From an uncultured Chloroflexia bacterium (GTDB lineage: Bacteria > Chloroflexota > Limnocylindria > Limnocylindrales > CSP1-4), in assembly GCA_963801745.1 (NCBI GenBank), contig CAWDFY010000005.1, positions 918,619 through 982,618 on the forward strand: a stretch of 64,000 nt of DNA, read 5' to 3'. Both the position numbers and the translations under genes were made by a program. The notes below the pieces were generated by a model. That model was not told the DNA's origin. It was given only the letters and a program-made list of their open reading frames with translations, and searched no databases. This document shows, piece after piece, positions 20,688 to 63,601 of this stretch. Position 1 is the stretch's first letter, and each line of letters opens with the position of its first letter.

Positions 20688-21381
20688 ATGCCCGAGCCGC
20701 ATGCCGACCCGAGCGCGCCCGACGCCCCGCGGCCACCGAGCCCGGTCCAGGAACGTGGCACGGTGCGGCACAACCTGCTCCTGCAGCTCCGCCACGACGG
20801 GCCATCGGCCCCCGAGGAGCTGGCTGCCAGCCTCGGGGCGAGCCGGACGGGAGTCCTGCAGCAGCTCCACGCGCTGGAGATCGGCCGGCCTGGTCAGCCG
20901 GAAGGCGGTTCGCCACGGGGTCGGGCGGCCGCGTCACGTGTACGACGTGACCGACGCGGCCCAGGACCTCTTCCCGACCAACTACGACGGTCTCGCCGAT
21001 GGCCTGCTCAGCGCGATCCGGGCGATCGGCGGCGAGACGCTGGTCGATGACGTGTTCGAGGAACGGCGGCGCCTGACCACCGCGAAGGTGCGCCAGCAGC
21101 TCGCGGACCGGCTGCCGACCGACGCGCCGCTGGTCGATCGGGCGCGTGAGCTGGCGGTCATCCAGGATGAGCAGGGCTACCTGGCGGAGGTGGCGATCGG
21201 TGCGGACGGGGTGATCCGGCTGGTCGAGCGCAACTGCGCGATCCATCACATCGCCGCCGGGAACGCCGCGGCCTGCCAGGCGGAGCTGGACCTGTTCCGT
21301 GACGTGCTCGGCGCCGACGTCGAGCGCGAGACGCACATCGTGGCCGGCGACCGCTGCTGCACCTATCGCATCGGCGGGTAG
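20688..21381 (+). CDS. HTH transcriptional regulator (COG2345-like winged helix) with 1-nt frameshift near 20885
   Basis: Frame A reads RHNLLLQLRHDGPSAPEELAASLGASRTGVLQQLHALE. Frame B continues AGLVSRKAVRHGVGRPRHVYDVTDAAQDLF... through the stop at 21381. One extra G in atcggccgg separates the frames. It is divergent from the ACAD gene. Confidence 0.65.
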
Positions 21382-21430
21382 GAGCGCTCGCGGCCACCAC
21401 GGTGCGGGCCCGCCGAACGGCGCCGAAGAC

Positions 21431-22483
21431 CTAGGCTTCCTCGCGCTCCACGGCACCGCGCGACGCGGGCTCGAGGCGCGGCGCCGGCACGTCGGACACG
21501 TTCGGCACGAACGACGCGGCGAGCGACGTCGCGGCCGCCTGCTCCTGGTCGTCGGCCGACAGGATCCCGAGACGCCCGAGCGTCGCCATCTCGTCGCGGA
21601 TGTACGTCTTGAGCATCTCGGGGCCGTCGGTGTTGATCGTGTACCGGATGCCGTTGCGCCGGAACGTGTCGAAGATCCAGCGGAACTCGTCCCAGCCCGA
21701 CACGACCCGGGTGTTGAGGTTCGAGGTCGGGCAGATCTCGAGGACGATGCCGCGCTCGCGGATCATCTCCATCGCGCGCGGGTCGTACGCGGACTTGACG
21801 CCGTGGCCGATGCGGTCGGGCTCGAGCAGCTCGACGACCCGGGCGATCTCGTCGACCGGACCGGCCTCGCCGGTGTGGACCGTGATCCCCAGCCCGAACT
21901 GGCGGGCCCGCCGGAAGAGCCGCCGGTAGTCGGCGACCCGGAAGGTCGATGCCTCGGGGCCGGCGATGTCGATGCCGACCACGCCCCGGTCGCGCCAGCC
22001 GATCGCCTTCTCCGCGATGATCTCGTTGAGCTCGTACGGGAACGCCCGGTCGAGGCAGAAGATCAGCCCGGGCTTCACCGGGTACTCGAGCGTCGCCTTG
22101 TCCATGCCGCGCAGGGCCGCCGCGATGATGTGGTCGAGGTCCTGCTCGCCGCCGCGGTTCCGCTTCATCGGGTTGAAGCGGAGCTCCATCGTCGTGATGT
22201 TGTTCTTGCGGTAGGCGCCGCCGACGACCTCGTACACGGCCCGCTCGACCGCGATCGGGGAGCTCTGGATCAGCTCGGTCCAGTGGAAGAGCTGGAGGTA
22301 GCCGTCGAAGCTCTGGGAGCGCTTCGAGACCGTGATCATGTCCCGGAACTCCCAGTAGTCCTTGGTCGGGAGCTTGATGCCCTGGGCGTGGGCGATGCCC
22401 CACATGATCGCCGGGGTGACGGCGCCGCCGAGATGGCAGTGCAGCTCCGCGAGGGGGATCTTGCGGGCGAGCTGGCGGGCCAT
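21431..22483 (-). CDS. add: adenosine deaminase family protein
   Basis: The sequence reads MARQLARKIPLAELHCHLGG...ITVHTGE...INTDGPEM. The ATG lies at 22483. Upstream ORF-track residues are a different, frameshifted gene. Confidence 0.85.
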   Translation of the reverse strand: MARQLARKIPLAELHCHLGGAVTPAIMWGIAHAQGIKLPTKDYWEFRDMITVSKRSQSFDGYLQLFHWTELIQSSPIAVERAVYEVVGGAYRKNNITTMELRFNPMKRNRGGEQDLDHIIAAALRGMDKATLEYPVKPGLIFCLDRAFPYELNEIIAEKAIGWRDRGVVGIDIAGPEASTFRVADYRRLFRRARQFGLGITVHTGEAGPVDEIARVVELLEPDRIGHGVKSAYDPRAMEMIRERGIVLEICPTSNLNTRVVSGWDEFRWIFDTFRRNGIRYTINTDGPEMLKTYIRDEMATLGRLGILSADDQEQAAATSLAASFVPNVSDVPAPRLEPASRGAVEREEA

Positions 22484-22512
22484 CACCCGCAGGATAGCGT
22501 CGGCGGTCGCTG

Positions 22513-23213
22513 TCAGTCGCACATCGGCAGGTACTTCTCGCCGTCGCGCCGGAGCAGCTGCACGGTCAGCCCGCCCTTCGACGTGAAGATCGCGTGCTCC
22601 GGGTCGATGATCGCCATCGTCCCGTCCGCGGCGTTGATCGCGTCGGGATGGTCGCCGTCGACCCCGCCGACCGGGTCCCACCACGAGCCGCCGACGTCGA
22701 TCCCGCTCCACAATCCGCAGTGACCGAGCGAGAACGGCCGGGGGCCGAGCCCGGCGGGCGGCGGCGAGCTCGGGCCCAGCGAGCACGCCGAATGCGTCCT
22801 GGCGGTCGATCGTGAGGCCGGCCTCCGGGCCGGTCGAGGTGACGTGGTACGACAGCGCACCGGCGCCCGCCTCGAGCGTGATGTCGCCCTGGGGTCGGAC
22901 GGCGAGCGATGTCGCGCAGCCCTCACCGGCCGCGCAGCCGAACGGGCCGACCTGGACGTAGCGCACCTCCGTCCCGGCCGGCACGACGCTCGCGGTCTGG
23001 GCTAGCACCCGGCTGCAATCCTGCGGGCCGAGGCTGACGCACGCGGTCGGGACGTTCGTGAGGTCGACTCCGGCCGCGCGCCGCGGCCGAGGCCGAGGCT
23101 GACGCGGACGCGACGCTCGCTGATGGGGCCGTGGAGGCCCGTGCGGCGGGTCCGGAGCAGGCCGCGACCACGAGCGCGGCGACCGCGAGGACGACCAGCG
23201 GCGAACGGGCCAT
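22513..23213 (-). CDS. lipoprotein with at least 2 frameshifts (about 22750 and about 23060)
   Basis: The lipoprotein signal is MARSPLVVLAVAALVVAACSGP. A middle frame reads TNVPTACVSLGPQDCSRVLAQTASVVPAGTEVRYVQVGPFGCAAGEGCA...LAGPELAAA. A third frame reads PFSLGHCGLWSGIDVGGSWWDPVGGVDGDHPDAINAADGTMAIIDPEHAIFTSKGGLTVQLLRRDGEKYLPMCD*. The switches occur at GC homopolymers (cggcccccggcc). Confidence 0.4.
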
Positions 23214-23257
23214 GCGCCCCGGGACGCCGCGACGGTCCGGTCGGTTCCGAGGTCGGG

Positions 23258-24289
23258 TCAGCCGGCGAGCGGGACGATGCGGCCGTCGACGTCGACCGTG
23301 GCCTGACGGCGTCGTGCGGCACGCAGCTCCGCGCCCGGCACCTGGTCGCGGGCGTGGTAGCTGGAGCGCACCAGCGGCGCCGACTCGACGTGCCTGAACC
23401 CGAGCGCCAACGCGGCCGACTTCATCTCGGCGAACTCGTCGGGGTGGTAGTAGCGCTCGAGCGGCAGGTGCTGCATCGACGGCCGGAGATACTGGCCGAC
23501 CGTGAGGATGTCGACGTCGTTCGCGCGCAGCGCCTCGAACGCCTCCTGCAGCTCGTCGCGGGTCTCGCCCAGCCCGACCATCAGGCTCGACTTGGTGTGG
23601 ACGGCGTAGCCGACGTCGACCGCCATCTCCTTGGCCCGTCGCAGGACGTACAGCGATCGATCCCAGCGTGCCCGCTTGCGGACCGGCTTCTGCAGGCGGC
23701 GGACGGTCTCGAGATTGTGGTTGAGGATGTCGGGCCGGGCGTCCATCACGATCCGGAGTCGGTCGTCCGAGCCGTCGAAGTCGGGGATCAGCACCTCGAT
23801 GCCCATGCCGGGGCTTGTCGATCGCATCCGGGTGATGGTCTCCGCGAAGACCGTCGAGCCGCCGTCGGGCAGGTCGTCGCGGGCCACGCTCGTGACCACG
23901 ACGTGCTCGAGCCCCATGGCGGCGACCGCGACCGCGACCCGCCGCGGCTCGTCGTCGTCGAACCAGGTCGGTCGGCCGGTCTTGACGGCGCAGAACCCGC
24001 ACGCCCGGGTGCACGTGTCGCCGAGGATCATGATCGTGGCCGTGCGCTGGTCCCAGCACTCCCCGATGTTCGGGCAATGCGCTTCCTCGCAGACGGTGTT
24101 GAGCTCGAGCCCGCGCAGCAGCCGCTTCAGGTCGTGGTAGTTGTCGCCGGACGGCATCCGTGCACGGATCCAGTCCGGGTGACGACGGAGGGGCTGCGCC
24201 GAGCCGCCCATCGCGATCGTGTCGGGGACGGGTGGCGGATGATGCCCGCCGGTCGTCGGCGGCTCGAACATCGGCAGCTCACGGGCCAT
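23258..24289 (-). CDS. lipA: lipoyl synthase
   Basis: It contains [12 protein letters not shown] and the radical-SAM CxxxCxxC motif ([15 protein letters not shown]). The ATG at 24289 is at index 125 of the ORF-track entry. Confidence 0.9.
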
Positions 24290-30353: not shown

Positions 30354-32988
30354 GTGGTCGAGAGCGACATCACCGACCGGACGCTGCCGACCGGCACCGT
30401 CACGTTCCTCCGGACCGATGTCGAGGGCTCGATGGCCCTCAGCCGAGCCCTCGGGTCGCGCTGGGACGCGCTGAACGACCGGCACCTCGGGCTCATCCGC
30501 GGGGCGGTCGACGCGGCCGGCGGGGTGGTCGTCCGGACCGAGGGGGACGCCGTCTTCGCGGCCTTCCAGGAAGCCGGTGCCGGCGTCCGGGCGGCCATCG
30601 AGGCGCAACGGGCCCTCGTCGAGGCCGACTGGCCGGCGGACGCGCAGATCCGCGTCCGGATGGGTCTCCACAGCGGCGAGGCGCACCTGGCCGGCGACGA
30701 CTACGGCGGTTTCGACGTCAATCGGGCAGCGCGCGTCGCTGCCACCGGTCACGGCGGCCAGATCATCCTCAGCTCCACGACCCGCGGTCTGGTCGAGTCG
30801 TCACTGCCGGATGGCGTGGACCTCCGCGACCTCGGACGGCATGCGTTGCGCGACCTGCCGCAACCCGAGCAGCTGTTCCAGCTCGACGTGCCAGGCCTTC
30901 GAACGGCATTCCCGGCGCTGCGCACCGCCATGCCGACCATCGGTGATCTGCCATCGCGGATGACCAGCTTCGTCGGTCGCGAGGCCGAGCTCGATGAGCT
31001 ACGCGAGCTGCTGGGCGAGCAGCGGCTGGTGACGCTGACCGGTCCTGGCGGGATCGGCAAGACGAGCCTGGCCGTAGAGACGGCGCGCTCCGTGGCCCAC
31101 CGCTTTGCCGACGGGGCGTGGTTCGTGCCGCTCGCCCAGGTCGACGAGCCGTCGATCGTAGCCTCGGTCATCGCCCGCACGATCGGCCTGTTCGACGGAC
31201 CCGCGAGGCCCGCCAGAGATGCCCTCGGCCCCTACCTCGCCGAGCGGTCGGTCCTGCTCGTGCTCGACAACTTCGAGCGCCTGCTCGACGCGTCGAGCGA
31301 TGTCGCCGACATCCTCCGCGCGTCATCAGCTTCGAGGATCCTGTTGACCAGCCGGGCGCCACTGCGGATCCCAGGCGAGCAGGAGTATCCGGTCAGGCCG
31401 CTGGTCGAAGCCTGCCCGACGCTGTTCGTGGAGCGCGCACGAGCGGTCAAACCTGGCTGGGAGCCCGGGGCCGAAGCAGCAGTCCTCGATGACGTGTGCT
31501 CCCTGCTCGACGGGCTGCCGCTCGGGGTCGAGCTGGCAGCGGCCCGCGTCGCGCACCTACCGGTGACCGCCATCCGGGACCGCCTGGCTGCGCGCTTGCC
31601 GCTCCCGGGTGCGGGCCCGCGCGATGTGCCGGACCGGCAGCGCACGCTGGCGGCCGCCTTCGAGTGGAGCCACGACATGCTCTCGACCGGATCGCAGCAT
31701 GTCCTGCACGATCTGGCCGTATTCGAAGGTGGGTTCGACCTCGACCAGGCCACGCAGGTGGTTCAGCCGACCGATGACGGCGTCGACGTGCTCGATCACC
31801 TCGTGGCGCTCGTCGACCAGAGCCTCGTCAAGCGCGATGCGGAGGACTCGGTCGGATCCGGGATCCGCTTCCGGCTGCTCGCGACGATCCGTGGCTTCGC
31901 GCTCGAGCGACTTGACGGCGAGGGCCGATCGGAGGAGGCCCGGCGGCGGCACGCCGTCGCGTACCTCGCGCTGGCCGAACAGGCGGCGCCGACGATGCCG
32001 GGACCAAACCAGCCGCGGTGGCTAGCGCGCCTGACCATCGACTACGACAACATCCGCGCGGCGATCCGATGGACCATCGACGCCGGTGAGGTCGAGCTCG
32101 CGTTGCGGTTCGTGGCCGCGATGTGGCGCTATTGGCAGCAGGATGGCCATCTTGTCGAAGGCGCCGACCTGGCGGAGGCGGCGCTTGCGATGCCCGGTGC
32201 CGATGCCACGACGGAGCATCGGCTTGCTGCCGTCACGGCGGCGGGTGGGATCGCGTACTGGCAGAACCGGCGAGCGGACGCGCTCGGGTGGTACGAGGAG
32301 GAGCTCGCGGTCGCACGCCGGCTCGGACACGTGGCAGGCGAGGCGGACGCCCTCTGGAACCTGGCCTACGGACGATATGTCGCCGAGGATACGTCGGGTG
32401 CGGAGGAGCTCCTGCGACGGTCTCGTCGGCTGTTCGAGCAAGTCGGTGACGAGCGAGCGATCGCGCGTGTCGATTGGTCGATAGCGACGCTGCTTGGCGC
32501 GATCGCGATGAGTCGGGAACAACTGCCAGTGTTCGAGTCTCTGCTGGACAGAATTCGAGCGCCTCGGCGACCCGTGGTACGCCTCTCAAGCGAAGTCCAG
32601 CATCGCCTGGGTGCTGTTCATGACCGGCGACCTGCCCGGCGCCAGTCGCTGGTACATCCGCGGGCTGACGACGGCGCTTGGCCTTCGAGACCTTACCGGG
32701 GCGACCATCTCGCTCGAGGTCGCGGCTGTGGTGGCCGCGGAAGCCGGGCGGCCCGAGGAGGGTGCGGCGATGATGGGGGCGTCCGAGCACCTTCGCGAGC
32801 TGTACGGGGTGGAGCCACCACAGGGTTTGCAGGAGCTCATCGGACAGGCGTCGCCGCGCGAGCGTCTCGTGGCGCTGCTCCTCCCGGACCGCTTCGCGGC
32901 CTCGTTCGACCGCGGCCGGCAGATGACGATCGATGAGGCGGTCGCCCTGATCATCCGGGTCCAGGACGAGACCTGGGGTGGCGCTTGA
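30354..32988 (+). CDS. class III nucleotidyl (adenylyl/guanylyl) cyclase + NB-ARC/AAA ATPase + TPR (STAND) protein, copy 1; frameshift near 32552
   Basis: The cyclase domain reads TVTFLRTDVEGSMALS...RTEGDAVFAAF...RVRMGLHSGEAHLAGDDYGGFDVNRAARVAATGHGGQII. Walker A is LTGPGGIGKTSLA. The C-terminal 125 aa (ORF 32611..32988) is homologous to the end of copy 2 but lies in a different frame. The gene begins 10 nt after the CNB-transporter stop. Confidence 0.75.
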
Positions 32989-36615: not shown

Positions 36616-36768
36616 CGGATGGCTCCTGAGGGACGCCAGCCAGACCGGCTGCTGCCGGCGACCGGCAGTCGTGTCGAGGATCGCGTTCGACCTGGCCATC
36701 CACGATGGTTCGGTCGGCGGTGATCTCGAGATGGGCGCGGAGGATCAGCTCGACGTCTCGCTGTGCGT

Positions 36769-47555: not shown

Positions 47556-47782
47556 CGCTCGCCGTCGACCGGCCGGCCGCGCGAGATGCGCCACAACAGC
47601 CAGGCCGTGCCGACGATCAGGACCACGATCAGGACCGGCCCCTGGAAGATCGCCTGCTGGATCGGCGTCGGCAGGAAGCCGGTGAGCGCCGCCGCGCCGA
47701 GCACGACCACCACGACGCCGATGGCCAGCAGGACGACCTGTGGCCAGCCGGGTTCGCGACCGGGCGCCTCGGGCTCAGCCAC
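47552..47782 (-). CDS. small 2-TM membrane protein (hypothetical)
   Basis: The GTG at 47782 lies 2 nt after the YjeF_N stop. Two hydrophobic helices are QVVLLAIGVVVVVLGAAALTGFL and VLIVVLIVGTAWLLW. Confidence 0.35.
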   Translation of the reverse strand: MAEPEAPGREPGWPQVVLLAIGVVVVVLGAAALTGFLPTPIQQAIFQGPVLIVVLIVGTAWLLWRISRGRPVDGER

Positions 47783-49551: not shown

Positions 49552-49630
49552 CGACAAGTGAGCGACGGTTGACCGGGCGATGACCGACGACGCGTACGAT
49601 GCTCGTGCATCCGCCCGGGAGGTTCGTTCC

Positions 49631-50343: not shown

Positions 50344-50352
50344 CGACGGAGG

Positions 50353-51295
50353 ATGCGGTTCGGCGCTGCGTTCTGGATCCAGCGCACCAGCTGGCCCGAC
50401 CTGCGCGATGCGTGCCTCGCCGTCGAGGCGGCGGGCTGGGACTCGATCTGGCTCGACGACCACCTGCTGTCGGACGAGGGGGACTGGAGCGACCCGAAGC
50501 TGGAGGGCTGGGCGTCGCTCGCCGCGGTCGCATCGCTGACGACGCGCGTCCGCCTCGGGCTGCTGGTGTCGTCGACGACGTTCCGGAACCCGGGGCTCAT
50601 CGCCAAGCTGGCGACGACGCTGGACCACGTGTCGGGCGGGCGGAGCGTGCTCGGGCTCGGCGGCGGCTGGTTCGGCCGCGAGCACGACGCCTTCGGCATC
50701 GATTTCGGGACAGGCTTCGGGGAACGGCTCGACCGGCTCGACGAGGCGACGATGATCGTCCGGCGGCTGCTCGACGGCGAGCGGTTCTCACACGCCGGCC
50801 GCTTCTTCCGGGTCGACGACGCGGTGTGCGAACCGCGCCCCGTGCAGGAGCGGCTGCCGATCCTGATCGGCGGCTCCGGGCCGACCAAGACGCTGCGCAC
50901 GACGGCCCGGTACGCCGACCTGTGGAACGGCTATGGCGACCCGGACCGCATCGCCGACGTGTCCGAGGTCCTGCGCACCCGCTGCGGGGAGGATCGGCCG
51001 TCCGTTCGAGTCGATCGAGCGGACCGTGACGGTCCACGCCGTCGTGCGCGACACCGCGGCGCACGCGGTCGAGGCGTGGACGCCGATCGCCAAGCGGCAC
51101 GGCCTGGTCGACCGCGTGGCCGCCGACGGCACCGATCGGGGCCTCACCGTCGGTGGTTCGCCGCAAGAAGTAGCCGCGTACCTCGACGGCTATCGCCGCA
51201 TCGGGGTCGGCGAGGTGGTGTTCGTGTTCCGCCACCCCTTCGACCTGGAGACCGTCGGGCGGCTCGACGAGGTCCGGGCCGCGCTCGGCGGCTAG
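50353..51295 (+). CDS. LLM-class F420-dependent oxidoreductase (second copy), 1 frameshift near 50990
   Basis: The N-terminus reads MRFGAAFWIQRTSWPDLRDACLAVEAAGWDSIWLDDHLL. The C-terminus GRPFESIERTVTVHAVV...GVGEVVFVFRHPFDLETVGRL is in the +1 frame after the cggggag run. Confidence 0.7.
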
Positions 51296-52270
51296 GTCCC
51301 TGACCGCTCCTCGGCGGTCGTGCGTCGCCACAGCTCGGCCGCGAGCAGCTCGGCCACCACCGAGGCGACGATCGCCCGCTCGAAGCGATCGGCCGCCGGA
51401 CGCGGCGGGACCGGGATCGTCAGCGCGGCGCCATCGACCGCGTCTCCGACGACGATCGTCTCCCCTCCCCGGCGGGCGATCGTGCGGACGACCTCCGCGT
51501 CGGCCGGCGCGCCGCCGAAGAGCAGCGCCCGGTGGCCGGGCAGCGCGAGGTAGACCGCGGTGTGCAGCCAGTCGCCGGTGTCGTGTCGCGGTGCGCCGGC
51601 AGACGCGGCGCCTCGCGCAGCATGAGCGCCGCCTGCTGGACCAGCGCCGAGTCGGCCGCGTCGCCGACGACGTCGATCGCCGTGGCGCCGTCGAGGAGAT
51701 CGGCCGCGTCGGACAGCCACGCATCGCGGCCGTCGATCGCGGCCCCCAGTGCCTCGACCGCCGGGCGGAACGAGCCGGCGCTCGGACCGTCCGCCGACCC
51801 AGCGACCGGCGAGCATCGCCGAGCACCGCGACCGTGGCCCGGAACGTGCGCGTGGCGATGCCGGACGCCTCTTGCCGCGCGAACAGCGGCAACACGTGAT
51901 CGGCGGCCTCGGCCAGCGGCGACTCGATCCTGTCGGTCACCGCCACGACCCGGCCGTGGCCGCGATGGCGTCGGGCCGCCTCGACGACCTCCGGCGTGTG
52001 GTCCCGGACGCCGACACCGCGACCACGACGAGGTCCCCGGACGGTGCGGTCGGCGCGCCGCTCGACGCGTACTCGGACCAGGCCGCGACACCGCGGCTCC
52101 GGAGCTCCGCGGCGGCGGTCAGCGCCGCGTACCGCGAGCTGCCGAGCCCGACGAACGCGACCCGGCCGGGCGCCGCGCCGATGCCCGCGAGGGGTCCGCG
52201 CGGGTCCCCGTACGCGTCGAGCAGCTCGGCCAGGGCGGACGGCCCGGCGAGGATGTCGTCGAGCAGCGCG
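51292..52270 (-). pseudogene. SIS-domain sugar-phosphate isomerase/deaminase-like protein, at least 2 frameshifts
   Basis: The N-terminal SIS segment is RVAFVGLGSSRYAALTAAAELRSRGVAAWSEYAS...DLVVVAVSASGTT. The C-terminal segment DWLHTAVYLALPGHRALLF...AIVASVVAELLAAELWRR lies in another frame. Confidence 0.5.
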
Positions 52271-52286
52271 TCGGCGCGATCGGCGC

Positions 52287-53500
52287 TCACGCCCCTGCCC
52301 CGGCGTCCTCGAACAGCGCCCGCATCCCCTCGGTCGGCGCGTACAGCCACGCGGGCAGGTAGGTCGTGGCGTAGGCGAACTCGTACAGCTCCTTGTCGAC
52401 CTCGAAGGCGTGGAGGAGGTCCGGGTCGACGTCGACCCAGACCCGCCGCTCCGCCAGCTCGGCGCGGTACGCCTCGAGGAACCGTTCGCGGGCCCGCCGG
52501 ATCCAGGCCTCGGGGTCGAGCCCGGTGTGGTCCAGCGGGCCGCCGTGACGCGTCTCGGCACGTCGACGCGCGCTCCGCGCGACGTGATCGAGCGACCGCA
52601 GCATGGACGCCACGTCGCGGAGCGGCCGGCCGGTGCGCTCGGCGCTCCTCGGGCGTGGCGAGCGGCTCGCCCTCGAAGTCGATGATCCGGAAGCCGTCAG
52701 GTGCGATGAGCACCTGGCCCAGGTGGTAGTCGCCATGGGCACGGATCACCTCCGGCGCGGAGGCCAGCGCGTCGATCACGGTGATCGCCTCGGCGATGCG
52801 CGGCGCGAGGTCGCGGACGAGTCGCCCGGCGTCGCCGGACGTGGCCTCCAGCGCGGCGGCGAGATGCTCGTGCGCGGCCGTCGCCCAGCCCCGGATCTCG
52901 TCTCGGGTCGCGTTCCGCGGCGCCATGTCGGGCAGCCCGTGGCCGTCCGCGACCGCCGCGTGGAGCCCGGCCGTCAGCGTGCCCAGGTCGGCCGCGATCT
53001 CGGTCGCGAACTCGAGGCTCACCTCGCCGGGCGCCAGCGATCCACTCCGCGAGGGCCTCGGCCAGCGACTCGAACGCGTCGGCGCCGTCGGCCACGAACT
53101 CCTGGAGCATCGCGACCGTGGTCGAGCCATCGCGCTGGGTGATCACCTCGGCGAAGCCGGCGAGGCGGGGGATCGCCGGGAAGCCGGCGTCCTCGCTCAG
53201 GAACGCCGTCATCTCGAGGTCCGGGTTGAGGCCGGGCTGGAGCCGGCGGAACGCCTTGAGCAGGAGCGCGTCCCGCCAGCACCACCGAGGTGTGCGACTG
53301 GTCCGCCCCGAGGTCGCGCTCCGGGCCCGGCGCGTCAGGAGCCAGGTCGCGGAGAGCACGGGCCGGGCGGGCCACCAGGGCGGCCGTCGGACCCGTACCC
53401 GGGGTCGTCGACCCGCGCCAGCGCGGCGATGGTCCGGCCCTCGGCCATCGCCACGGCCAGCGTCCGCCACGTCCCGTCGCCGGGCGCCGCGACCCGCAGC
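52287..53500 (-). pseudogene. maltokinase-like (aminoglycoside-phosphotransferase-fold) kinase, at least 3 frameshifts
   Basis: Fragments lie in different frames. These are ALLLKAFRRLQPGLNPDLEMTAFL..., then HGDYHLGQVLIAPDGFRIIDFEGEP..., then the C-terminus ERRVWVDVDPDLLHAFEVDKELYEFAYATTYLPAWL. The 5-prime boundary is uncertain. Confidence 0.45.
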
Positions 53501-53729
53501 GGGTCGGCCGGTCAGCGCGAGGCTGTATCGCTCGCGGACGCCGTCGTCGAGCCGGACGACGATCGTCGCGAGGACGTGCGGACCGGCCTCGTCGAGGACG
53601 AACGCCTCCTCGAGCGACGCCTCGCCGATGGTCCGGCCCTTGGCGCCGAACCAGCGCGCCCCGGCGACCGCGTCGAGGTCGAGCGCCGAGATCGCCGCGG
53701 CGACCTCGGCTCGGGTGGGACCGCCGACG

Positions 53730-55183
53730 TCAGCCGCCCGTGTTGATCATCACGTGCTTGACGAACGTGTAGTCCTCGAGCGCGTACTTCGAGCCGTCCT
53801 TGCCGTAGCCGGACTGCTTCACGCCGCCGTGCGGTGTCTCCGACGCCAGCGTGAAGTGCTCGTTGATCCAGACGTGGCCGAACTCGAGCGCCTTGGCGAC
53901 GCGCATCGCCTTGCCGATGTCGCTCGTGAAGATCGACGACGCGAGGCCGTAGGGCGTGTCGTTCGCCCACTGCGATCGCCGTGTCCTCGTCGCTGAAGCG
54001 CTGGACCGTGACGACCGGCCCGAAGATCTCGTCCTGGATGATCTCGGACTTCTGGTCGGGGCCGGCGATGATCGTCGGCTCGTAGTAGGCGCCAGGCCGG
54101 TCGGGCCGCTTGCCGCCGACGACGACCTCGGCGCCGCCGCGCGCGCGGTCGACCATGCCCTCGACCTTGTCGGCCTGGGCCTTGGCGATGAGCGAGCCCA
54201 TCTCGATGTCGTCGCCCTCGGCCGGGTCGCCCCACTTGATCGTGCGGACCTGGTCGGCGAGCGCCGAGACGAAGTTGTCGTAGACCTTCGGCCCGGCGAT
54301 GACGCGGGTCGCGGCCGTGCAGTCCTGGCCGGAGTTCCAGTAGCCGGCCGAGCGCAGGGTCTCGGCGGCGAGGTCGATGTCGGCGTCGTCGAAGACGATG
54401 ATCGGCGCCTTGCCGCCGAGCTCGAGGTGCAGCCGCTTGACGGTGTCGGCGGCGATCTTGGCGATGCGCTTGCCGGTCGCCGTGTCGCCGGTGATCGAGA
54501 CCATCCGGACCTTCGGATGGCCGACCAGCGCGTCGCCGATGTCGGCGCCCGAGCCGGACAGGACGTTGACCACGCCCGGCGGCAGGATGTCGGCGAGGAT
54601 CTGGGCGAACGCCAGTGCGGTCAGCGGGGTGCGGGCCGAGGGCTTCAGCACGACGGTGTTGCCGGTCGCGAGCGCCGGGCCCGAGCTTCCACGTCGCCAT
54701 GTAGAGCGGGTAGTTCCACGGCGCGATCGACGCGACGACGCCGATCGGGTCGCGCCGGATGATCGACGTGTGGCCGGCCAGGAACTCGTTGGCGGCGAGG
54801 CCGTCCATCACCCGCGCGGCGCCGGCGAAGAAGCGGAACAGGTCGGCGCAGGTGGCCATCTCGTCGATCGCCGCACCGACCGGCTTGCCGGCGTTGGCGC
54901 TCTCGAGCCGGCCGAGCTCGTCGGCCTTGGCATCGAGCGCGTCGGCGATCTTGAGCATCAGCAGCGAGCGGTCCTGCGGGGTCGTCTGCTTCCACGTCTC
55001 GAAGGCCGTGTCGGCGGCCTCGACGGCCCGATCGACGTCCTCCTGCGAGCTCGCCGGCACGTTGGCGATGACCTCGTCGTTGGCCGGGTTGACGACCTCG
55101 GCGGTCTTGCCGTCGGCGGCATCGACGAAGTCGCCGCCGATGAGCTGCTGGTAGGTCTTGGCTCGTTCGAGGGTCTCGGTCAC
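53730..55183 (-). CDS. aldehyde dehydrogenase (NAD(P)+), 2 frameshifts (about 54645 and about 53935)
   Basis: GTG start. The N-terminus up to [17 protein letters not shown] is in frame 1. The middle [14 protein letters not shown]...ELGGKAP...GQDCTAATR... is in frame 2. The C-terminus [15 protein letters not shown]...[24 protein letters not shown]...INTGG* returns to another frame. Confidence 0.8.
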
Positions 55184-56191: not shown

Positions 56192-56195
56192 GTGG

Positions 56196-57621
56196 TCACC
56201 TCCACCTGAACACCCTCGCACGCGGCACGTCACCAACGGTCCGCCGGACGCTTGCGAGCCCTTTCAGGGGCGTTTCGGTCGTCCAGGGGGACGCGTCGCT
56301 CCGACGGCCGGTCGCAGCGATCTGCTCGACGAGGTCGGCGGCCCGGACGGTGCCCGACGAGGCCTTGATCCGGTCCGACATCGCCGCGAGTCGGCTCGCC
56401 AGCGCCCGATCGGCGAGCAGCCGGTCGATGGCGCCCGTCAGCTCGTCGTCCTCGAAGCCGTAGGTCGAGAGACGCCTGCCGAAGCCCGGTCTCGTCGACC
56501 CGCTGGGCGTTGTCGACCTGGTCCCAGAACAGGGGCAGCACGATCATCGGCTTGCCGTGGTGGAACGCCTCGGTGACGGTGTTGTTGCCGCCGTGGGTGA
56601 TGACCAGGTCGACCTGCGGCAGGATCGCCGGCTGGGGCAGGAAGCCCTCGCCGGTCTGGTTGTCGTGCAGCCGTGATCTGGTCGGCGAGCGGCCCCTTCG
56701 ACACGATCACCCGGTGCGGCGTCGTCGGCCAGCACGTCGACCAGCCGCTGCATCAGCTCGACGTCGGCCGAGCCGAGCGACCCCAGGGAGAGGTAGATCA
56801 GCGCTCCATCCCGCTCGGCCAGGTCCTCGGGCAGCGACCACGTCGCCTCCGGCGCGCGGACCGTCGAGTCGAGCCGATGCCACGTCGGGCCGAGCGGCGC
56901 CGACCGCTCGTAGTCGGCCTCGGCCGGGTACGAGTACAGGTTGAGGTACGGCGACTCGGCGATGAACTCGGGTCCGAGCATCGCCGTAGGTCAGGCCGGT
57001 CTCGCCGTGCGTCCGGCAGAACGCGTCGAAGTCCGCCCACATGTCGGCGTGCGTCCGGCGGACCTCGTCGAGGAACGCCGGCCAGCCGCTCTGGTCGGCG
57101 ACCGGATAGCCGCTGCGAGAACGGCGCGATCCGCGGATCCTTCATCTCCATCGGGTTGCACGACACGATCCGCACCCACGGCCGCCCGACTGGCGGCGAT
57201 GGCCGGGAAGGCGACGACGTTGTCCTCGACGATGACGTCGGGCGCGACCTCGTCGAAGATCTCGGTCGAGGCGCGGGTCCACGTACTTCGCACCGTCGAT
57301 GAGCGCCTGCCAGGTCGGCGCGATGAAGTCGCCCAGCTGCTCGAGCGTCGTCTTGCGGAAGACCGGCGCGGTGTCGCGGATGAAGTCGATCCAGAACTGG
57401 CCCGGGACCTCGGGCTCGGCCGGCGGCGGGCCGAGGCGCATCAGCCGCTCCTCGAACCCCTTGGCCTCGAGCGTGCCCGCGAACGACTCCTCGACGATGA
57501 ACACGACCCGGTGCCCGCGGGCCCGCAGCACCTGCCCGATGCCGACGCAGTTGTTCGTCGGACCGTAGGCGCCCTCGGGGAAGAAGACGATCGTGCGCGC
57601 GTCGGTCACGTGCCCCTCCAT
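56196..57621 (-). pseudogene. UDP-glycosyltransferase (GT1 / MGT family), at least 4 frameshifts
   Basis: The N-terminus is MEGHVTDARTIVFFPEGAYGPTNNCVGIGQVLRARGHRVVF. The middle is PWVRIVSCNPMEMKDPRIAP. The donor-binding region is HHGG..MIVLPLFWDQVDNAQRVDETGLR. The C-terminus is SDRIKASSGTVRAADLVEQIAATG. Each lies in a different frame. Confidence 0.5.
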
Positions 57622-57639
57622 TGCGGCGATGTCGGGCGA

Positions 57640-60480
57640 ATCTACCGTCCCAGGATGCAGGGCGATCGCGAGGATCGCGACGGCCGCGACCGCGACCGCC
57701 GGGTCGAGCCACGACCAGCGCATGATCCGGTAGTAGGTGCGCGGCCCGGACCCGAACGCGCGCGCGTCCATCGACACCGCCATCCGGTCGCCGTGGCGGA
57801 TCGCGAGCACGAGCAGGCCGACGAACAGGCGCGGGTGCCAGCCGCCACGCAACCCGCGGATCCGCCGGGCCTCGCGGAGCGTCTGTGAGGTCGTCGGCGA
57901 AGCGCGGGATCGCCTGGTACGCGGCCAGCGCCCCGTACGCGAACCGCGCCGGCACACGGCGCCTGCTGGACGAGCGAGTCGACCAGCCGGGTCGAGTCGG
58001 TCGTCAGCGCGAAGACCGCCCCGACGCAGGCGATCGCTACGACCCGCATCGCGATCGCGAACCCATGCGACCACGGCCTCGTCGGCGATGCGGATCGGCC
58101 CGACCGTCAGGAACGTCGGCCGTCGTCGGATCGCCGTTGGCCGCCGAGAACAGCGTGTTCGACACGCCGATCGCCAGCGCCGCCAGCCACAGCGGGGTCG
58201 AGTGTCCGGAGCAGGTTCGCGGGCGTGATGCCGCCGAGGACGAGGCCGGCGACCAGCACGACCACGGCCAGCACGACCGGGGGCACCGGGTGGAGCGTGA
58301 ACGCCAGGCCGATCAGCCACAGCAACGCGATCGCCAGCTTCACGATCGGGCTGGTCCGGCCGAGGACGCTGTCGAGCTGGGCGTCCGCGACCTCGAACCG
58401 TCCGGCGATCACGCGACGGCCTCGTCGCGCACGATCCAGCCCTCGTCGAGCTGCGACGACGCGGACGGCGACGTCCCGCGACGAAGCGCTCGTCGTGGGT
58501 CGCGGCGATGAGGCACGCCCCGTCGTCGAGATGCTCGCCGAGGATGCCGAGCAGGCCCTCGTAGCCGAGCCGGTCCTGCCCGAACGTCGGCTCGTCGAGG
58601 ACCAGCACCTCCGGGCGGCGGACCAGCACGCACGCCAGGGACAGCCGCCGCTGCTCACCGCCGGACAGCCGGTACGGGCTGCGCGCGCCCGAACTCGCTC
58701 GAGCGGCAGCCCGAGCCGGGCCATCAGGTCGTCGAGCCGCGGCCTCCTCGTCGACCGGCAGCCCGAGCGACACCTCGTCGGCGACGGTCTGGGCGAGGAA
58801 CTGGCGCTCCGGCTCCTGGAAGACGTAGCCGGCGTGCCGGGCGAGCGTCGCGGGCGGCAGGTCGGCCGGGTCGCTCGCCGTCGAGTCGGACGCGTGCCCT
58901 GGTCGGGACGCAGCAGCCCGACCAGGAGACGACCGAGCGTCGACTTGCCGCTGCCGTTCGCGCCGACGAGCGCGATGCGCTCGCCGACCGCCGCCTCGAG
59001 GTCGACATCGCGAAGGACCGGGTCGCGCGCGGTCGTACCCGAACCGGACGGCGTCGGCGCGGACGGCGACCGCGGCCCGGCGATGGCGTGCTTCGAGAGC
59101 CGGCTCGTGCGCGACCTCGCCGGGCAGCCAGATGCCCGGCCGCCCGCATCGCGTCGGCGGAACGCGCCAGGACGTCGGCCGGGACGCCCGACGTCGATCG
59201 GGCGGCCGTCGGGGCCGAGCGCCAGCACGATGTCGGCGAGCGGCCACGCCGGTCGACCCGGTGCTCGATCAGCACGACGGTCGTCGGAGCGCGCGCTCGC
59301 GCAGCGACGCGAGGGCGATCATGAGCGCCTCGGCGCCGGCGCGGTCGAGGTTGGCGGTCGGCTCGTCGAGGACGAGCAGCCCGGGTCGCGGCGCGAGCGC
59401 GCCGGCCAGCGCGAGCCGCTGCTGCTGACCGCCCGACAGCCGGCGCGACCGTCGCCGCTCCATGCTCGCCCAGGCCCGACCGTCGCCGAGCGCCTCGGGC
59501 ACGCGCGCCTGCATGTCGCTCAGCGGCCAGGCCCGGTTCTCGAGCCCGAACGCGACATCGTCCTCGACGCGCTCCATGACGAGCTGGACGGACGGGTCCT
59601 GGAGCACGAGGCCGACGCGGGCACCGACGTCGACCGGGCCGAGCGTCCGGACGTCCTCGCCGTCGAGCTCGAGCGACCCCGTCATCGTGGCCGGGAGCTC
59701 GCGCGGGCACCAGGCCCGCGACCGCCAGCGCGAGCGTGCTCTTGCCCGAGCCCGACGGCCCGACGACCAGCAGCACCGCGCCCGGCTCGAGGTCGAGGTC
59801 GACCGCCTCGAGCGCCGGCCGCTCGGCGCCGGCGTAGGTGACCCCGAGGTCACGGGCCCGGAGCGCGACGGGGCGTCAGTCCGGGAACCCTTCGAGCACG
59901 CCGGCCTGCTTGAGCGCGCGGTGGAGCACCACCGACCCACCCGCAACGATGACCACCGCCGAGATGCGCCATCGCGACGCCGCGGACGATCTGGACGACC
60001 GGGTCGAACGCCCGCGTAGTAGACGACCCAGTCGTGGATCCAGGCGGCGGCGCGCTGGCGACGGCGGCGACGGCGAGGACCGGGAACGTCCAGATCCGGT
60101 ACAGCGTGAACGCGAACACGAGCTCGGCGGCCGCGCCCTGGACGAACCCGGACAGCAGCGTGTCGACACCCCACAGGCTGCCCAGCAGCGCCGACACGCC
60201 GGCCGCCACCATCTCGGCGAACAGCGCGGCGCCAGGCTTGCGGATGATCAGCGGCGCGAGCACGGCAGGGATGAGCCAGACCGCGTAGAACAGGTCGCGC
60301 AGCGGCGGGGCGATCGCGTTGATGGCCGCGAGCGGGCCGTCCCAGACGATGCCCCAGACCCAGAACACGACGCCGAACGCGACGCCGATGACCGCGGCGA
60401 CGACGATGTCGCGCGTCCGCCAGCGCGTATCGGGGTAGGCGGTCGGCGCCGGCGCGTCGATGGTCGTCGGTCATGATGTC
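57640..60480 (-). pseudogene. ECF-type (energy-coupling factor) transporter module: EcfT, two ABC ATPase domains (EcfA/EcfA') and an S component; heavily frameshifted
   Basis: Recognisable pieces are scattered over all three minus frames. These are EcfT (IVKLAIALLWLIGLAFTL..., ...MAVSMDARAFGSGPRTYYR). ATPase 1 (LVGANGSGKSTLGRLL; YRLSGGEQRRLSLACVLVRRPEVLVLDEPT). ATPase 2 (LSGGQQQRLALAGALAPRPGLLVLDEPTANLD). An S-component-like helical protein (MFWVWGIVWDGPLAAINAIAPPLRDLFYAVWLIP...). Internal gene boundaries were not resolved. Confidence 0.4.
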
Positions 60481-60512: not shown

Positions 60513-61440
60513 TCACCGACTCCGGTCGGGCGTCATGGATCGATGTGGCCTGCTTCCTTCGCCGGTACGAGCCGGATCAGGTTCGGCGGGTCTGTGGCGT
60601 CGCCACACTCTCAGCGCGCAGGGCGCTCCCCGGAGGCGGTGTTCGGTTGTGCCGGAAGCGTAGCACGCGGGCGGAGCCAGCCGATGACGTCGTCGAGGAC
60701 GGCGGGCCACTCCGGTTCGTTGTGCAGCTCGTGGCGAAGGCCCGGGTACGTCCGCCGCTCGACGCCGGGCGCGCCCTCGAACACCTCGGTGGCCGCGGGC
60801 GGGACGAGCCCGTCGTCGAGACCGTGCAGGACCAGCGTCGGCCCGCCGATCGACCGCGCGCCGGCGCGGACACGGGCCTGCTCGGCGAGCGCCTCGGCGC
60901 CGAACCGGGTGGTGCTGGTCCGGACGTTCAGCGGATCGGCGGCCGAGCGCCGACCGACCTCCGGATCGCGCGACAGCGCCTCGGGCCGCGATGTCGTTCG
61001 AGATCGACAGGGTCGGGACGAGCCTGCCGAGGATCGGCGCCAGGCGTCGCTTCCACCAGGCCAGCGTCGAGTCGAGGCCCGGTGCCGAGAGCACCGTCAG
61101 GTCCGGCCGCGGCCGGTCGGTCAGCAGGTAGCCCGCCCCGACGAGCCCGCCCATCGAATGGGCGTACAGCGCGACCGGCCGGCCGTCGGCGCCGGCGCGC
61201 ACCGCCGCCAGGCGCTCCTCGAGGTCGTCGTGGTAGCGACTCCAGCGGTCGATGTCACCGCGCCGGCCATCGCTGCCGCCGTTCCCGCGCTGGTCGTACG
61301 CGTGCGCGTCGAGGCCGGCGGCGGCGAAGTGCTCGCCGACGTGCTCGTACCGGCCCGACTGCTCGCCGAGCCCGTGCACGATCAGGACGGTCGCCCACGG
61401 ATCGGCCGCGCGGCCAGTGGCGGGTACGCAGGCCGATGCC
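60513..61440 (-). CDS. alpha/beta hydrolase (lysophospholipase / monoacylglycerol-lipase-like), frameshifted C-terminus
   Basis: The N-terminus reads VLIVHGLGEQSGRYEHVGEHFAAAGLDAHAYDQRGNGGSDGRRG. The nucleophile elbow is YAHSMGGLVG. The C-terminal 120 aa continue in another frame. Confidence 0.6.
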
Positions 61441-61498
61441 GTCGGCGGTGACGACACGCCCGATGTCGGAGGGCATCGGGCCGTAGGATGCACCAGCG

Positions 61499-62336
61499 AT
61501 GGGTGTGTCCGACGGATGGGTCGAGATCGGTGACCGCGTCTTCGTGCGCCGGTACGAGTTCTACGACCAGAACATCGGCGTCGTGCTCGGGCGCGCTGAG
61601 GCGCTCGTCATCGACACGCGCTCGACCTATGCGCAGGCGCGCGAGATCCAGGCCGACCTGCGCGAGCTGACCGACGACCCGGTCGGCGTCGTCGTCGACA
61701 CGCACGGCCACTTCGACCACGTCTTCGGCAACGGCATCTTCCGCCCGGCGACGATCTGGGGCCACGAGCGCTGTGTCACGTTCATGGTCCGCACCGGCGA
61801 AGCGCGCAAGAAGACCATCGCGGCCGAGGAGCCGCTCCTCGCCGACGAGCTCGCGGAGATCGTCATCGACCCGCCCGATCGCGTCTTCGCGACGAAGACG
61901 CGGGTCGAGGTCGGCGGTCGCGAGGTCGTGCTCCGCCATCTCGGCCGCGGCCACACCGACCACGACATCGTGATCGAGGTGCCGGGCACCGACGTCCTGT
62001 TCGCCGGCGACCTGCTCGAGAACGGCAGCGTGCCGTTCTTCGGCGATGCCTATCCGCTCGAATGGCCGGCGACAGCCGCCGCGCTCGCCGTGCGGGTGCA
62101 CCCTGACCGGGGCGTCGTCGTGCCGGGCCACGGCGACCATGGCGGGCGGGCCGTCGCCGACGCCCAGGCGGCGTCGCTTGAAGCGCTGGCGGATCTCGCC
62201 CGACGCGTGGAGGCCGGGGAGCTGCCGTTCGAGGAGGCGATCGCCGCGCAGGCCGTTCCCCGACCACCCGGCCGAGGATGCCCGCCGCGGCTTCGAGCGC
62301 GCCCGGCGCCAGATCCGCGGCGAGCTCGACTGACGG
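61499..62336 (+). CDS. MBL-fold metallo-hydrolase, frameshift near 62255
   Basis: The HxHxDH motif is DTHGHFDH. Later motifs are GHTDHDIV and HGD. The last 25 aa (FPDHPAEDARRGFERARRQIRGELD*) are in the adjacent frame. Confidence 0.7.
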
Positions 62337-62340
62337 CGGG

Positions 62341-62544
62341 TCAGTCGTCGAGGATGAACGTGATCAGCAGGTTGACCCGGTAGCCGACGATCCGGCCGTC
62401 CTCGACGTCGACCGCCTGCTCCTTGATCCAGCCGCCCTTGACGTTGCGGAGCGTCTTGTTGGCCCGTTCGATCCCCTGGTTGATGGCGTCCTCGAAGCTC
62501 GCCTCCGAGCGCGAGCTGATCTCCGTCACACGTGCGACCGACAT
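62341..62544 (-). CDS. dodecin family flavin-binding protein
   Basis: 67 aa. It reads MSVARVTEISSRSEASFEDAINQGIERANKTLRNVKGGWIKEQAVDVEDGRIVGYRVNLLITFILDD, as expected for dodecin. Confidence 0.85.
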   Translation of the reverse strand: MSVARVTEISSRSEASFEDAINQGIERANKTLRNVKGGWIKEQAVDVEDGRIVGYRVNLLITFILDD

Positions 62545-62584
62545 GTCGGCACCTCCTGGAGCGTTCGGGGGACGAGGGACTACC

Positions 62585-63601
62585 TTACCGCTCGCCCACC
62601 CTGACGACCCAGCGACCCCGCGCGCCGCCGGCGATGATCCCGTCGAGGGCGCCGTCGAGCGTGTCGAGCGTCACCTCGGTCAGCCCATCGCCGAGCGCCC
62701 GCGGTCGCAGGTCGGTCGCGAGCCGCGCCCAGATCGCCCGGCGTCGGTCGATCGGCATCTGCGCCGAGTCCATCCCGAGCAACGCCACGCCGCGCAGGAT
62801 GAACGGGAACACCGTCGTGTCGAGCTTGGGGCCGCTCGCGTTCCCGCTCGACGCCACCGCGGCACCGGTGCGCAGCGTGCGCAGCACGTACGGAAGCGTC
62901 GCCGCACCGACCGGGTCGACCGCCCCGGCCCACCGCTCCGACTCGAGCGGCCGGCCCTCGCCGGTCACCTCGTCACGGCCGAGGATGCCGGCGGCACCCA
63001 GCCCGCGCAGCCGGTCGGCCTCGTCGGCCTTGCCGGTCGCCGCCCAGACCTCGTGGCCGCGCTGGGCGAGGATCGCGACGGCGGTGCTGCCGACGCCGCC
63101 GCTGGCACCCGTGACGAGGACCGGTCCATCGCCCGGCGTGAGGCCGCGCTCCTCCAGTGCCACCACCGACATCGCCGCGGTGAAACCGGCGGTCCCGATG
63201 GCCATCGCGTCGTGCGCCGACAACCCGCGGTCGAGCGGCACGATCCAGTCCGCCGGCACCCGCTGGTACTCGGTGTAGCCGCCGTGGCGCGACACGCCGA
63301 GCTCGTAGCCATGGGCGAGCACCGGCGCGCCGACCGCGATCGACGGATCCGCGCTTTCGACGACCTCGCCGGCCAGGTCGATGCCGGGGATGATCGGGTT
63401 GATCCGGGCGACCTTGCCGTCGACCCGCGTCGCGAGGCCGTCCTTGTAGTTGACGCTCGACCAGCCGACCCGCACGGCGACCTCGCCCGGCGGCAGGTCG
63501 GTCGCGTCGAAGTCACGCACGCCGCGTTCGACCCGCGGCTCGCGCGCCGGTCTCGACCCGCTCGGCGACGTACGCGCGGAATGTGGCGGGGATCGCGCCC
63601 A
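62585..63601 (-). CDS. MDR-superfamily quinone oxidoreductase (YhdH / acryloyl-CoA reductase-like), frameshift near 63535
   Basis: The N-terminus MGAIPATFRAYVAERVETGA is in one frame. The body continues EPRVERGVRDFDATDLPPGEVAVRVGWSSVNYKDGLA...VLVTGASGGVGSTAVAILAQRGHEVWAATG.... Confidence 0.7.
   Translation of the reverse strand, partial: WARSPPHSARTSPSGSRPAREPRVERGVRDFDATDLPPGEVAVRVGWSSVNYKDGLATRVDGKVARINPIIPGIDLAGEVVESADPSIAVGAPVLAHGYELGVSRHGGYTEYQRVPADWIVPLDRGLSAHDAMAIGTAGFTAAMSVVALEERGLTPGDGPVLVTGASGGVGSTAVAILAQRGHEVWAATGKADEADRLRGLGAAGILGRDEVTGEGRPLESERWAGAVDPVGAATLPYVLRTLRTGAAVASSGNASGPKLDTTVFPFILRGVALLGMDSAQMPIDRRRAIWARLATDLRPRALGDGLTEVTLDTLDGALDGIIAGGARGRWVVRVGER

Follow-up and report, generated by a model that had tools for sequence, protein, structure and literature searches.

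The window, a stretch of 64,000 nt, carries from 20.7 kb onwards genes for ordinary metabolism and transport, among them those for an HTH regulator, a sigma factor, glpD, an aldehyde dehydrogenase (ALDH), two luciferase-like monooxygenases and a TPP-riboswitch-controlled ECF transporter (Table 1). Many of these genes are interrupted by changes of reading frame. The initial annotation had reported pervasive frameshifting with at least 25 switches; this was borne out, although the number was too low. About 85 frameshifts are genuinely present in the letters of the sequence, and a codon-usage Viterbi model applied to the whole window detected 79 same-strand frame switches on its own. All the genes that had been named as affected proved to be so, including the last two listed in Table 1.

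Table 1. Features with frameshift sites, and the riboswitch, in the window (positions in nt; +1, +2 and -1 denote extra or missing bases).
Feature	Position	Strand	Sites and remarks
HTH regulator	20688..21372	+	one +1 insertion, T at 20881
A_deaminase-family 'lipoprotein'	21431..23261	-	-1 at 22576; +1 G at 22783
Cyclase-like copy 1	30354..32990	+	+1 frameshift at ~32550
Beta-propeller gene adjoining the sigma factor (possible anti-sigma factor)	35650..36775	-	+1 G at 36683
ECF sigma factor	36769..37322	-	one-base deletion at 36867
Luciferase-like monooxygenase 1 (LLM1)	43474..44431	-	+1 G at 44349
glpD (DAO + DAO_C)	45874..47594	-	five +1: 46165, 46215, 46380, 47048, 47271
DUF2461 gene	49580..50343	+	+2 insertion (CG) at 49792
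Luciferase-like monooxygenase 2 (LLM2)	50353..51295	+	+1 T at 50994
SIS-domain gene	51292..52350	-	five insertion sites: 51588, 51593, 51790, 51818, 51996 (+2)
Maltokinase-like gene (no Pfam match)	52287..53732	-	five +1: 52624, 53038, 53275, 53401, 53500
Aldehyde dehydrogenase (ALDH)	53730..55183	-	two +1: 53972 G, 54675 C
GT1 glycosyltransferase	56292..57712	-	eight +1 insertions
ECF transporter T component (CbiQ)	57642..58412	-	six +1 insertions
Fused ECF ATPase (two ABC_tran domains)	58409..59878	-	26 indel sites, net +19
Small gene downstream of riboswitch (probable ECF S component)	59876..60474	-	four sites
TPP riboswitch upstream of ECF operon	60536..60642	-	Rfam RF00059, 62.1 bits (gathering score 54.3)
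Alpha/beta hydrolase	60671..61560	-	two +1: ~60993 and ~61410
MBL-fold hydrolase	61499..62383	+	+1 frameshift at ~62252
MDR (zinc-type alcohol dehydrogenase) oxidoreductase	62585..63651	-	+1 frameshift at ~63542

The closest relative used for comparison was an uncultured Chloroflexia MAG (L001) that shows 94% DNA identity to the window and is collinear with it from 39.3 to 60.8 kb (21.4 kb). The genes of L001 are all intact and its ORFs match Pfam at full length; the Viterbi model found just 10 frame switches in these 21.4 kb, all of them at gene boundaries, while 38 window switches in the shared stretch had no L001 counterpart. A blastn alignment of the two sequences over 42.4-60.6 kb revealed 73 indels of a length not multiple of three, 64 of which lie inside genes, and the codon-usage frame switches of the window were found a few bases from these sites. 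Relative to L001, the window contains 60 single-base insertions, three two-base insertions and seven single-base deletions, a ratio of insertions to deletions of about 9:1. Apart from +1 and -1 changes, only three frame-breaking indels were present in genes, every one a +2. Elsewhere in the window, too, most of the inferred frameshifts are +1. With references at 4-6% divergence, a small number of the indels may be true differences, above all the intergenic ones and the few -1 events.

A more distant genome (L004, 71-85% identity) provided proteins that span the breaks in the window, so that the ancestral frames are intact at the protein level. As had been claimed from the translated letters, homology continues across the switches: for ALDH, glpD and the alpha/beta hydrolase, one protein of a relative aligned as consecutive HSPs in different frames. 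The L004 glpD protein aligned in three frames, and in L001 the orthologous protein is intact, at 571 aa. The L004 ALDH protein was also split over three frames (residues 8-180, 179-414 and 415-490), the middle fragment of the window gene corresponding to positions 159-386 of 461 in Pfam Aldedh. For the alpha/beta hydrolase, residues 1-62, 73-212 and 205-319 of the L004 protein were found in frames -2, -3 and -1, respectively. In the MBL-fold hydrolase, the last ~45 codons of the ORF are in the wrong frame; the next frame encodes the true C-terminus, PFPDHPAEDARRGFERARRQIRGELD*, which agrees with the one in L004. The N-terminus of the MDR oxidoreductase, MGAIPATFRAYVAERVETG, and ...DLPPGEVAVRVGWSSVNYKDGLA are encoded in different frames, with a Viterbi switch at 63542, and in the raw ORF Pfam ADH_N starts only at residue 93. 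The ORF at 49599-51029 of the window is a wrong reading frame; as a query it nonetheless retrieved L001, owing to the 94% DNA identity. No indel relative to L001 was present in the TPP riboswitch according to the blastn indel list.

Upstream of 43 kb, another relative (L011) served as reference. The HTH regulator passes from frame +2 to +0 at 20885, where the window has a T in surplus relative to L011; without this T, a single clean winged-helix ORF ending in a stop codon is obtained. The 'lipoprotein' gene runs through frames -1, -0 and -1, its L011 orthologue being a single 599-aa ORF, and the switch at 36688 in the beta-propeller gene coincides with a G in surplus relative to L011. The sigma factor gene switches frame at 36866, the L011 gene coding for an intact 184-aa sigma-70 protein; addition of one base regained the region-4 motif GIPTGxMKSRIHRA. 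Cyclase-like copy 1 has a Viterbi switch from +2 to +0 at 32549, and its paralogue at 32985-35633 gave the same multi-frame HSP pattern (residues 6-748 in frame 3, residues 742-875 in frame 1). Three groups of candidate sites were set aside. The Viterbi switches at 26830-26867 are not frameshifts, the E2 (2-oxoacid_dh) gene being rich in in-frame indels at this point; the extra bases at 38371, 38426 and 38885 did not enter the count of coding frameshifts, being located at gene starts or outside them; and the indels relative to L011 at 30.8-32.1 kb were discarded as noise from the alignment of a paralogue.

The sites are unevenly distributed. About 7-9 lie between 20.7 and 43 kb, roughly one per 2.5-3 kb, and housekeeping genes such as those for 2-oxoacid dehydrogenase at 38.9-42.3 kb are spared; beyond 43 kb there is about one site per 0.25 kb. 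The rise after 43 kb noted in the initial annotation was therefore correct in direction, but the step is not sharp: the density climbs as a gradual ramp with clean gaps (no site at all at 47.5-49.5 kb). The fused ECF ATPase gene is the densest stretch, with 9-13 sites per 500 nt and the maximum of 13 (2.6%) at 59.0-59.5 kb, and the repaired ORF nevertheless contains no internal stop. GC content was considered as a cause and rejected, since the segment at 16-18 kb is free of frameshifts at 74.6% GC, whereas that at 56-58 kb contains many at 70.5% GC.

The change in density at around 43-44 kb had been read as a possible chimeric join, that is, a misassembly in which a sound contig was fused to one that is poor or foreign, and a 282-bp intergenic segment at 43207-43487 of the window is indeed missing from L001. 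However, the gene order of both L001 and L004 is the same across this point, and mismatches to L001 amount to 5.0% in the large block before 43 kb and to 5.9% and 5.2% in the two that follow. As synteny and substitution divergence are unbroken, and the density forms a ramp with a clean stretch rather than a step, a chimeric join appears highly improbable. Two strains of one species might still have been joined here; the ratio of window-derived to L001-derived substitutions falls slightly, from 0.76 to about 0.5.

The frameshifts had also been ascribed mostly to short G or C homopolymers, a bias taken as the signature of uncorrected long-read or ion-type sequencing. The insertion spectrum contradicts this. 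In 52 of the 60 single-base insertions (87%) the inserted base is unlike both neighbours, and just eight touch a run of the same base. When only insertions with identical 5+5 flanks were considered, 24 of 26 (92%) were non-homopolymer, against 44% expected from a simulation of random insertions (p = 3e-7). The base most commonly inserted was G after C, or C before G, so that typical insertions create a CpG (C^A to CGA, GG to GCG). A minority of sites do lengthen G/C runs, as at 42468 (G5 versus G3), 53401 (G4 versus G3) and 59135 (C3 versus C2), and most contexts look G/C-rich because the genome has 72% GC. Homopolymer compression, however, typically produces deletions, while the errors here are insertions. 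Classic homopolymer-length miscalls by uncorrected Nanopore or ion-type reads are thus very unlikely to account for the sites. In published long-read assemblies, consensus errors consist mostly of homopolymer deletions (PMC12007338, PMC9262707), and our searches of the literature turned up no account of +1 insertions that create CpG.

The frameshifts could be real mutations, with some 20 kb from glpD to the ECF transporter and beyond decaying in this lineage. The clustering of the sites in one part of the window, with the housekeeping genes upstream spared, would fit such pseudogenisation. In addition, the ECF genes at 57.6-60.5 kb may be accessory, since L004 has no DNA-level match to them and only fragmentary protein matches. 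The state of the genes argues against decay. Projection onto L001 coordinates restored 15 of 15 genes to full length, and no nonsense substitution was found in the ~5,700 repaired codons. The repaired genes share 87-98% amino-acid identity with L001; in the densest zone dN/dS is 0.06-0.23, with no sign of relaxed selection, and third codon positions hold most of the differences. When substitutions were polarised with L004 as the outgroup, the window lineage had fewer derived changes than L001 in every zone, still biased to third positions. In GT1, for example, 16 derived substitutions were assigned to the window (11 of them at third positions) and 40 to L001, beside the eight insertions. On the evidence of these comparisons, the underlying genes are almost certainly intact and under normal purifying selection.

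The indels themselves also differ from those of a decaying segment. In neutral decay, substitutions far outnumber indels; here, indels reach about 1% per site beside only about 1% derived substitutions. Spontaneous indels in bacteria are deletion-biased and arise by slippage in repeats, whereas those of the window are insertions in a 9:1 ratio, nearly all exactly 1 nt long and non-duplicative, rather than mixed lesions. The relatives were searched for the frameshifts of the window and none was common to them; where all three assemblies can be compared, no indel occurs in more than one of them. True pseudogenisation is thus extremely improbable. A variant of this explanation, also extremely improbable, is that the +1 insertions are real and stem from a very recent, insertion-biased, CpG-creating mutational burst in one strain; it would have struck a partly accessory segment of about 17 kb from glpD to the riboswitch-controlled ECF transporter, too recently for substitutions or nonsense mutations to have accumulated.

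The frameshifts are very probably consensus errors of the assembly, the genes looking broken because some 80 surplus bases entered the assembled sequence. The contention of the initial annotation that error rather than biological pseudogenisation was involved is thereby upheld, on the private nature of the indels, the repair without internal stops, the low dN/dS and the absence of excess substitutions. The insertions are spread over the three codon junctions without phase preference (21, 18 and 16; n = 55), which indicates that selection has not filtered them.

As to how the errors might have arisen, the contig belongs to an uncultured Chloroflexota bacterium from soil with a high GC content (72%), and the software building the consensus would have added single spurious bases in the second half of the window, mostly unlike both neighbours and placed as G after C or C before G to give CpG, at a rate climbing to about 1-2.6% per base. 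Locally thin or conflicting long-read support would be the likeliest cause, for instance where an accessory segment is present in some members of the population only; low local read depth is a plausible factor. The platform and pipeline may have been those of the nearest relatives, whose metagenomes were sequenced on Nanopore R10.4.1, with Flye used for assembly and Medaka for polishing. Their catalogue, MFD-LR, relies on Nanopore data alone and was produced with Flye --meta and a single Medaka round, and its authors point to Nanopore-associated errors in lower-coverage MAGs (PMC12313526). The acyl-CoA dehydrogenase gene of L011, in which three compensating single-base insertions leave a gene still called at 385 aa, appears to be a case of the same error type in another public assembly.

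Two features sit less easily with an assembly artefact: its signature is not the textbook one, 87% of the insertions being non-homopolymer, and low coverage of the raw-read kind should also add substitutions and deletions. As window-derived substitutions are not in excess, the hypothesis that a single raw read underlies the sequence is weakened. By eye, G-after-C and C-before-G insertions are interleaved along the window, and there is thus no sign of tiling by single reads.

A consensus built from a mixture of strains, with both alleles of a SNP written as adjacent bases, would explain why the inserted bases are unlike their neighbours and why the sites occur in patches, as expected of regions that vary between strains. 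Yet the insertions do not cluster beside third codon positions: 18 of the 55, the share expected by chance, fall at the junction between the first and second positions, away from the third, and the association with L001 mismatches is weak (clean 5+5 flanks in 26 of 58 cases, against a rough estimate of ~33 expected). Strain mixing is unlikely, the writing out of both SNP alleles being rejected by the uniform codon phase.

No biological significance attaches to the breaks, but the warning that automated annotation would fragment these genes was justified, as about 20 of them would be reported as fragments or pseudogenes. Because wrong frames in 72%-GC DNA often lack stop codons, frameshifted stretches can also become silently translated long ORFs and enter protein databases, as exemplified by the end of the MBL hydrolase and by the L011 acyl-CoA dehydrogenase call. 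Polishing or quality checks focused on homopolymers would miss this class of error, 87% of which lies outside them.

Decaying genomes such as those of Mycobacterium leprae and recent symbionts combine nonsense mutations and relaxed dN/dS with deletions that vary in length and outnumber insertions. The window resembles them in having many neighbouring genes interrupted by frameshifts, but has none of these traits. The frameshifts from collapsed haplotypes outlined in PMC8445201 also offer a likeness, being consensus frameshifts carried by no single molecule, although the case described there is a diploid eukaryote and the codon-phase test gives allele mixing no support in the window. A further parallel lies in the indel errors of long-read (Nanopore/PacBio) assemblies and MAGs (bioRxiv 10.1101/285049; PMC9262707; PMC12007338), where private single-base indels likewise split conserved genes, at a density that depends on the region, and are removed by reference-guided editing. 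The window departs from the homopolymer deletions published for such assemblies in that its errors are ~9:1 insertions, 87% of them outside homopolymers, CpG-creating and unaccompanied by excess substitution errors.

The window, with a GC content of 72% along its whole length, was found to have its closest relatives among MAGs of uncultured Chloroflexia with MFD isolate names, obtained from metagenomes of Danish soil. Three related loci were compared with it: L001 (CAWEMV010000002.1), collinear with window positions 39338-60810 at ∼94% DNA identity; L011 (ENA ERZ25039576 contig_122920), which spans 17775-42755 with 94-96% identity; and L004, syntenic over 39.9-62.3 kb with 71-85% identity and also used as an outgroup. 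Between the aldehyde dehydrogenase (ALDH) and glycosyltransferase (GT1) genes, L001 contains an additional + strand gene of ∼130 aa (L001 16474-16866) that the window lacks.

A codon-usage Viterbi model trained on the window's clean genes detected 79 same-strand frame switches, which are thinly scattered up to 43 kb and very closely spaced beyond. Applied to L001, the same model gave 10 switches in 21.4 kb, every one at a gene boundary. Where the two sequences overlap, 38 switches of the window had no L001 counterpart, and the blastn alignment placed a frame-breaking indel no more than a few bases from each. This alignment (42.4-60.6 kb) revealed 73 such indels, 64 of them intragenic. Viterbi analysis, blastn against L001 and single-gene checks brought the total to ∼85 sites, bearing out the pervasive frame switches (at least 25) claimed in the initial annotation; its per-gene counts were equalled or surpassed by the indel counts against L001. 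Homology was also carried across the breaks, as had been stated: the L004 ALDH protein, for example, aligned in three successive frames (residues 8-180, 179-414 and 415-490). Site density was ∼1 per kb over 44-55 kb, apart from a clean gap at 47.5-49.5 kb, and climbed to 9-13 per 500 nt at 58.5-59.5 kb. At 8299-8530, a (CAGGGC)n array with ∼39 copies of the hexanucleotide codes for a Gly-Gln repeat in a large + strand gene; the frame moves from +0 to +1 within the array ('cag g cag', ∼8518), and at least one frameshift therefore lies upstream of 20688-63601, the region initially flagged.

Genes affected by frame breaks, and the interval of the additional L001 gene
Feature	Window position	Change	Basis
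LLM1 (luciferase-like monooxygenase)		1 frame-breaking indel	vs L001
glpD		5-6 frame-breaking indels	vs L001
DUF2461		1 frame-breaking indel	vs L001
LLM2 (luciferase-like monooxygenase)		1 frame-breaking indel	vs L001
SIS		5 frame-breaking indels	vs L001
Maltokinase-like		5 frame-breaking indels	vs L001
ALDH		2 frame-breaking indels	vs L001
GT1		8 frame-breaking indels	vs L001
EcfT		6 frame-breaking indels	vs L001
Fused EcfA		26 frame-breaking indels	vs L001
Small gene downstream of riboswitch (probable S component)		4 frame-breaking indels	vs L001
HTH regulator	20881	+T	one-base repair; outside L001 overlap
ECF sigma factor	36867	-1	one-base repair; outside L001 overlap
Deaminase-family "lipoprotein"	22576, 22783		comparison with L011; outside L001 overlap
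Cyclase-like copy 1	∼32550		comparison with paralogue; outside L001 overlap
Alpha/beta hydrolase	∼60993, ∼61410		comparison with L004; outside L001 overlap
MBL hydrolase	∼62252		outside L001 overlap
MDR oxidoreductase	∼63542		outside L001 overlap
Extra-gene interval	56236-56307		L001 16369-16925

When the window was projected onto L001 coordinates, dropping the extra bases, all 15 genes became full-length ORFs, with zero internal stops in ∼5,700 codons and 87-98% amino-acid identity. The four densest genes showed dN/dS values against L001 of 0.18, 0.23, 0.20 and 0.06, with most differences at third positions. Substitutions polarised by L004 were fewer in the window lineage than in L001 in every zone; in GT1, which has 8 insertions in 1.3 kb, 16 changes were window-derived, 11 of them at third positions, compared with 40 derived in L001. 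The window thus has extra insertions without extra substitutions. Insertions were evenly spread over the codon junctions (21, 18 and 16), and none of the window frameshifts was shared with L001, L011 or L004; L011 has private frameshifts of its own. Real gene decay should be accompanied by nonsense mutations, a relaxed dN/dS and deletions that vary in size and outnumber insertions, and real spontaneous insertions mostly duplicate the adjacent base, but none of these features was seen in the window. Five independent tests (repair, selection, polarised substitutions, codon phase and privacy) point the same way, and the frameshifts are very probably an assembly or consensus artefact, of low biological interest. 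The artefact reading of the initial annotation is upheld in its conclusion, though not in its homopolymer argument or its suggestion of a chimeric join.

Such a join had been proposed near 43 kb. Gene order across this point is the same in the window, L001 and L004, and mismatch divergence from L001 was 5.0% at 39.3-43.2 kb, 5.9% at 43.5-55.3 kb and 5.2% at 56.3-60.8 kb, which does not bear out a chimera, although two strains of one species may possibly be joined there. The single structural difference at the boundary is a 282-bp intergenic segment (43207-43487) found in the window alone and absent from L001. It holds two exact copies (43288 and 43403) of a 15-nt hairpin-forming motif, TCTGCTCCCAGCAGA, of which neither the rest of the window nor the related loci showed a further copy.

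Several other features were observed. The region ∼44430-45080 (-), non-coding according to the codon-usage model, encodes a small, conserved protein in which a linker rich in Gly and Tyr joins two CxxC...CxxC zinc-ribbon halves; at the DNA level it is 84% identical to L004, more than its neighbours are, and its mismatches show a 3-nt periodicity (50, 21, 18). A cNMP-binding/HEAT-repeat protein of 930 aa (27552-30344) is followed by tandem paralogues of ∼880 aa each (30354-32990 and 32985-35633; 60% amino-acid identity), at whose position L011 appears to have only one copy. The ECF transporter operon, itself heavily frameshifted, has a TPP riboswitch (RF00059, 62 bits; 60536-60642, -) upstream of it, which suggests that the transporter is thiamine-related; the riboswitch shows zero indels against L001. 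The small intact gene between the MBL hydrolase and MDR oxidoreductase (62344-62550, -; start MSVARVTEISSRSEASFEDAINQGIERANKTLRNVKGG) may, from its appearance, be dodecin-like.

The relatives carry private frameshifts at L011 1758-2915, ∼16226 and 20022, and at L004 15499-16796; the L004 GT1 gene also has a frame switch. In the L011 acyl-CoA dehydrogenase gene, three single-base insertions (2340, 2468 and 2607) cancel each other out, and a 385-aa protein is still called despite ∼88 out-of-frame codons. The L011 E1 alpha and beta genes are merged in one 667-aa call. The MFD long-read catalogue, the source of the relatives, was assembled from Nanopore R10.4.1 reads only with Flye --meta and a single Medaka round, and its authors report Nanopore-associated errors in lower-coverage MAGs (PMC12313526). 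Since L011 has similar non-homopolymer single-base insertions, an error mode shared at the pipeline level is suggested, which would act on very GC-rich DNA with thin read support. Over the ECF genes (57.6-60.5 kb), L004 had no match at the DNA level and matched only in fragments at the protein level, so the densest stretch may be an accessory segment at lower depth.

Relative to L001, the window has 60 single-base insertions, seven single-base deletions and three two-base insertions. The initial annotation placed most errors in short G/C homopolymers; this did not hold, since the inserted base differed from both neighbours in 52 of the 60 single-base insertions. In 26 insertions the 5+5 flanks were identical; of these, 24 were non-homopolymer, where random insertion would give 44% (p = 3e-7), and 18 created a new CpG, where the expectation was 30% (p = 4e-5). 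Inserted bases were G (32), C (16), T (9) and A (3), in events typically of the form C^A to CGA, CC to CGC, GG to GCG or TG to TCG. Homopolymer-focused checks miss this class of error, which in high-GC DNA can silently yield plausible-looking translated ORFs. The platform is left unnamed because the spectrum departs from that of published long-read consensus errors: the latter are chiefly homopolymer deletions (PMC12007338; PMC9262707), whereas those of the window are mostly non-homopolymer insertions.
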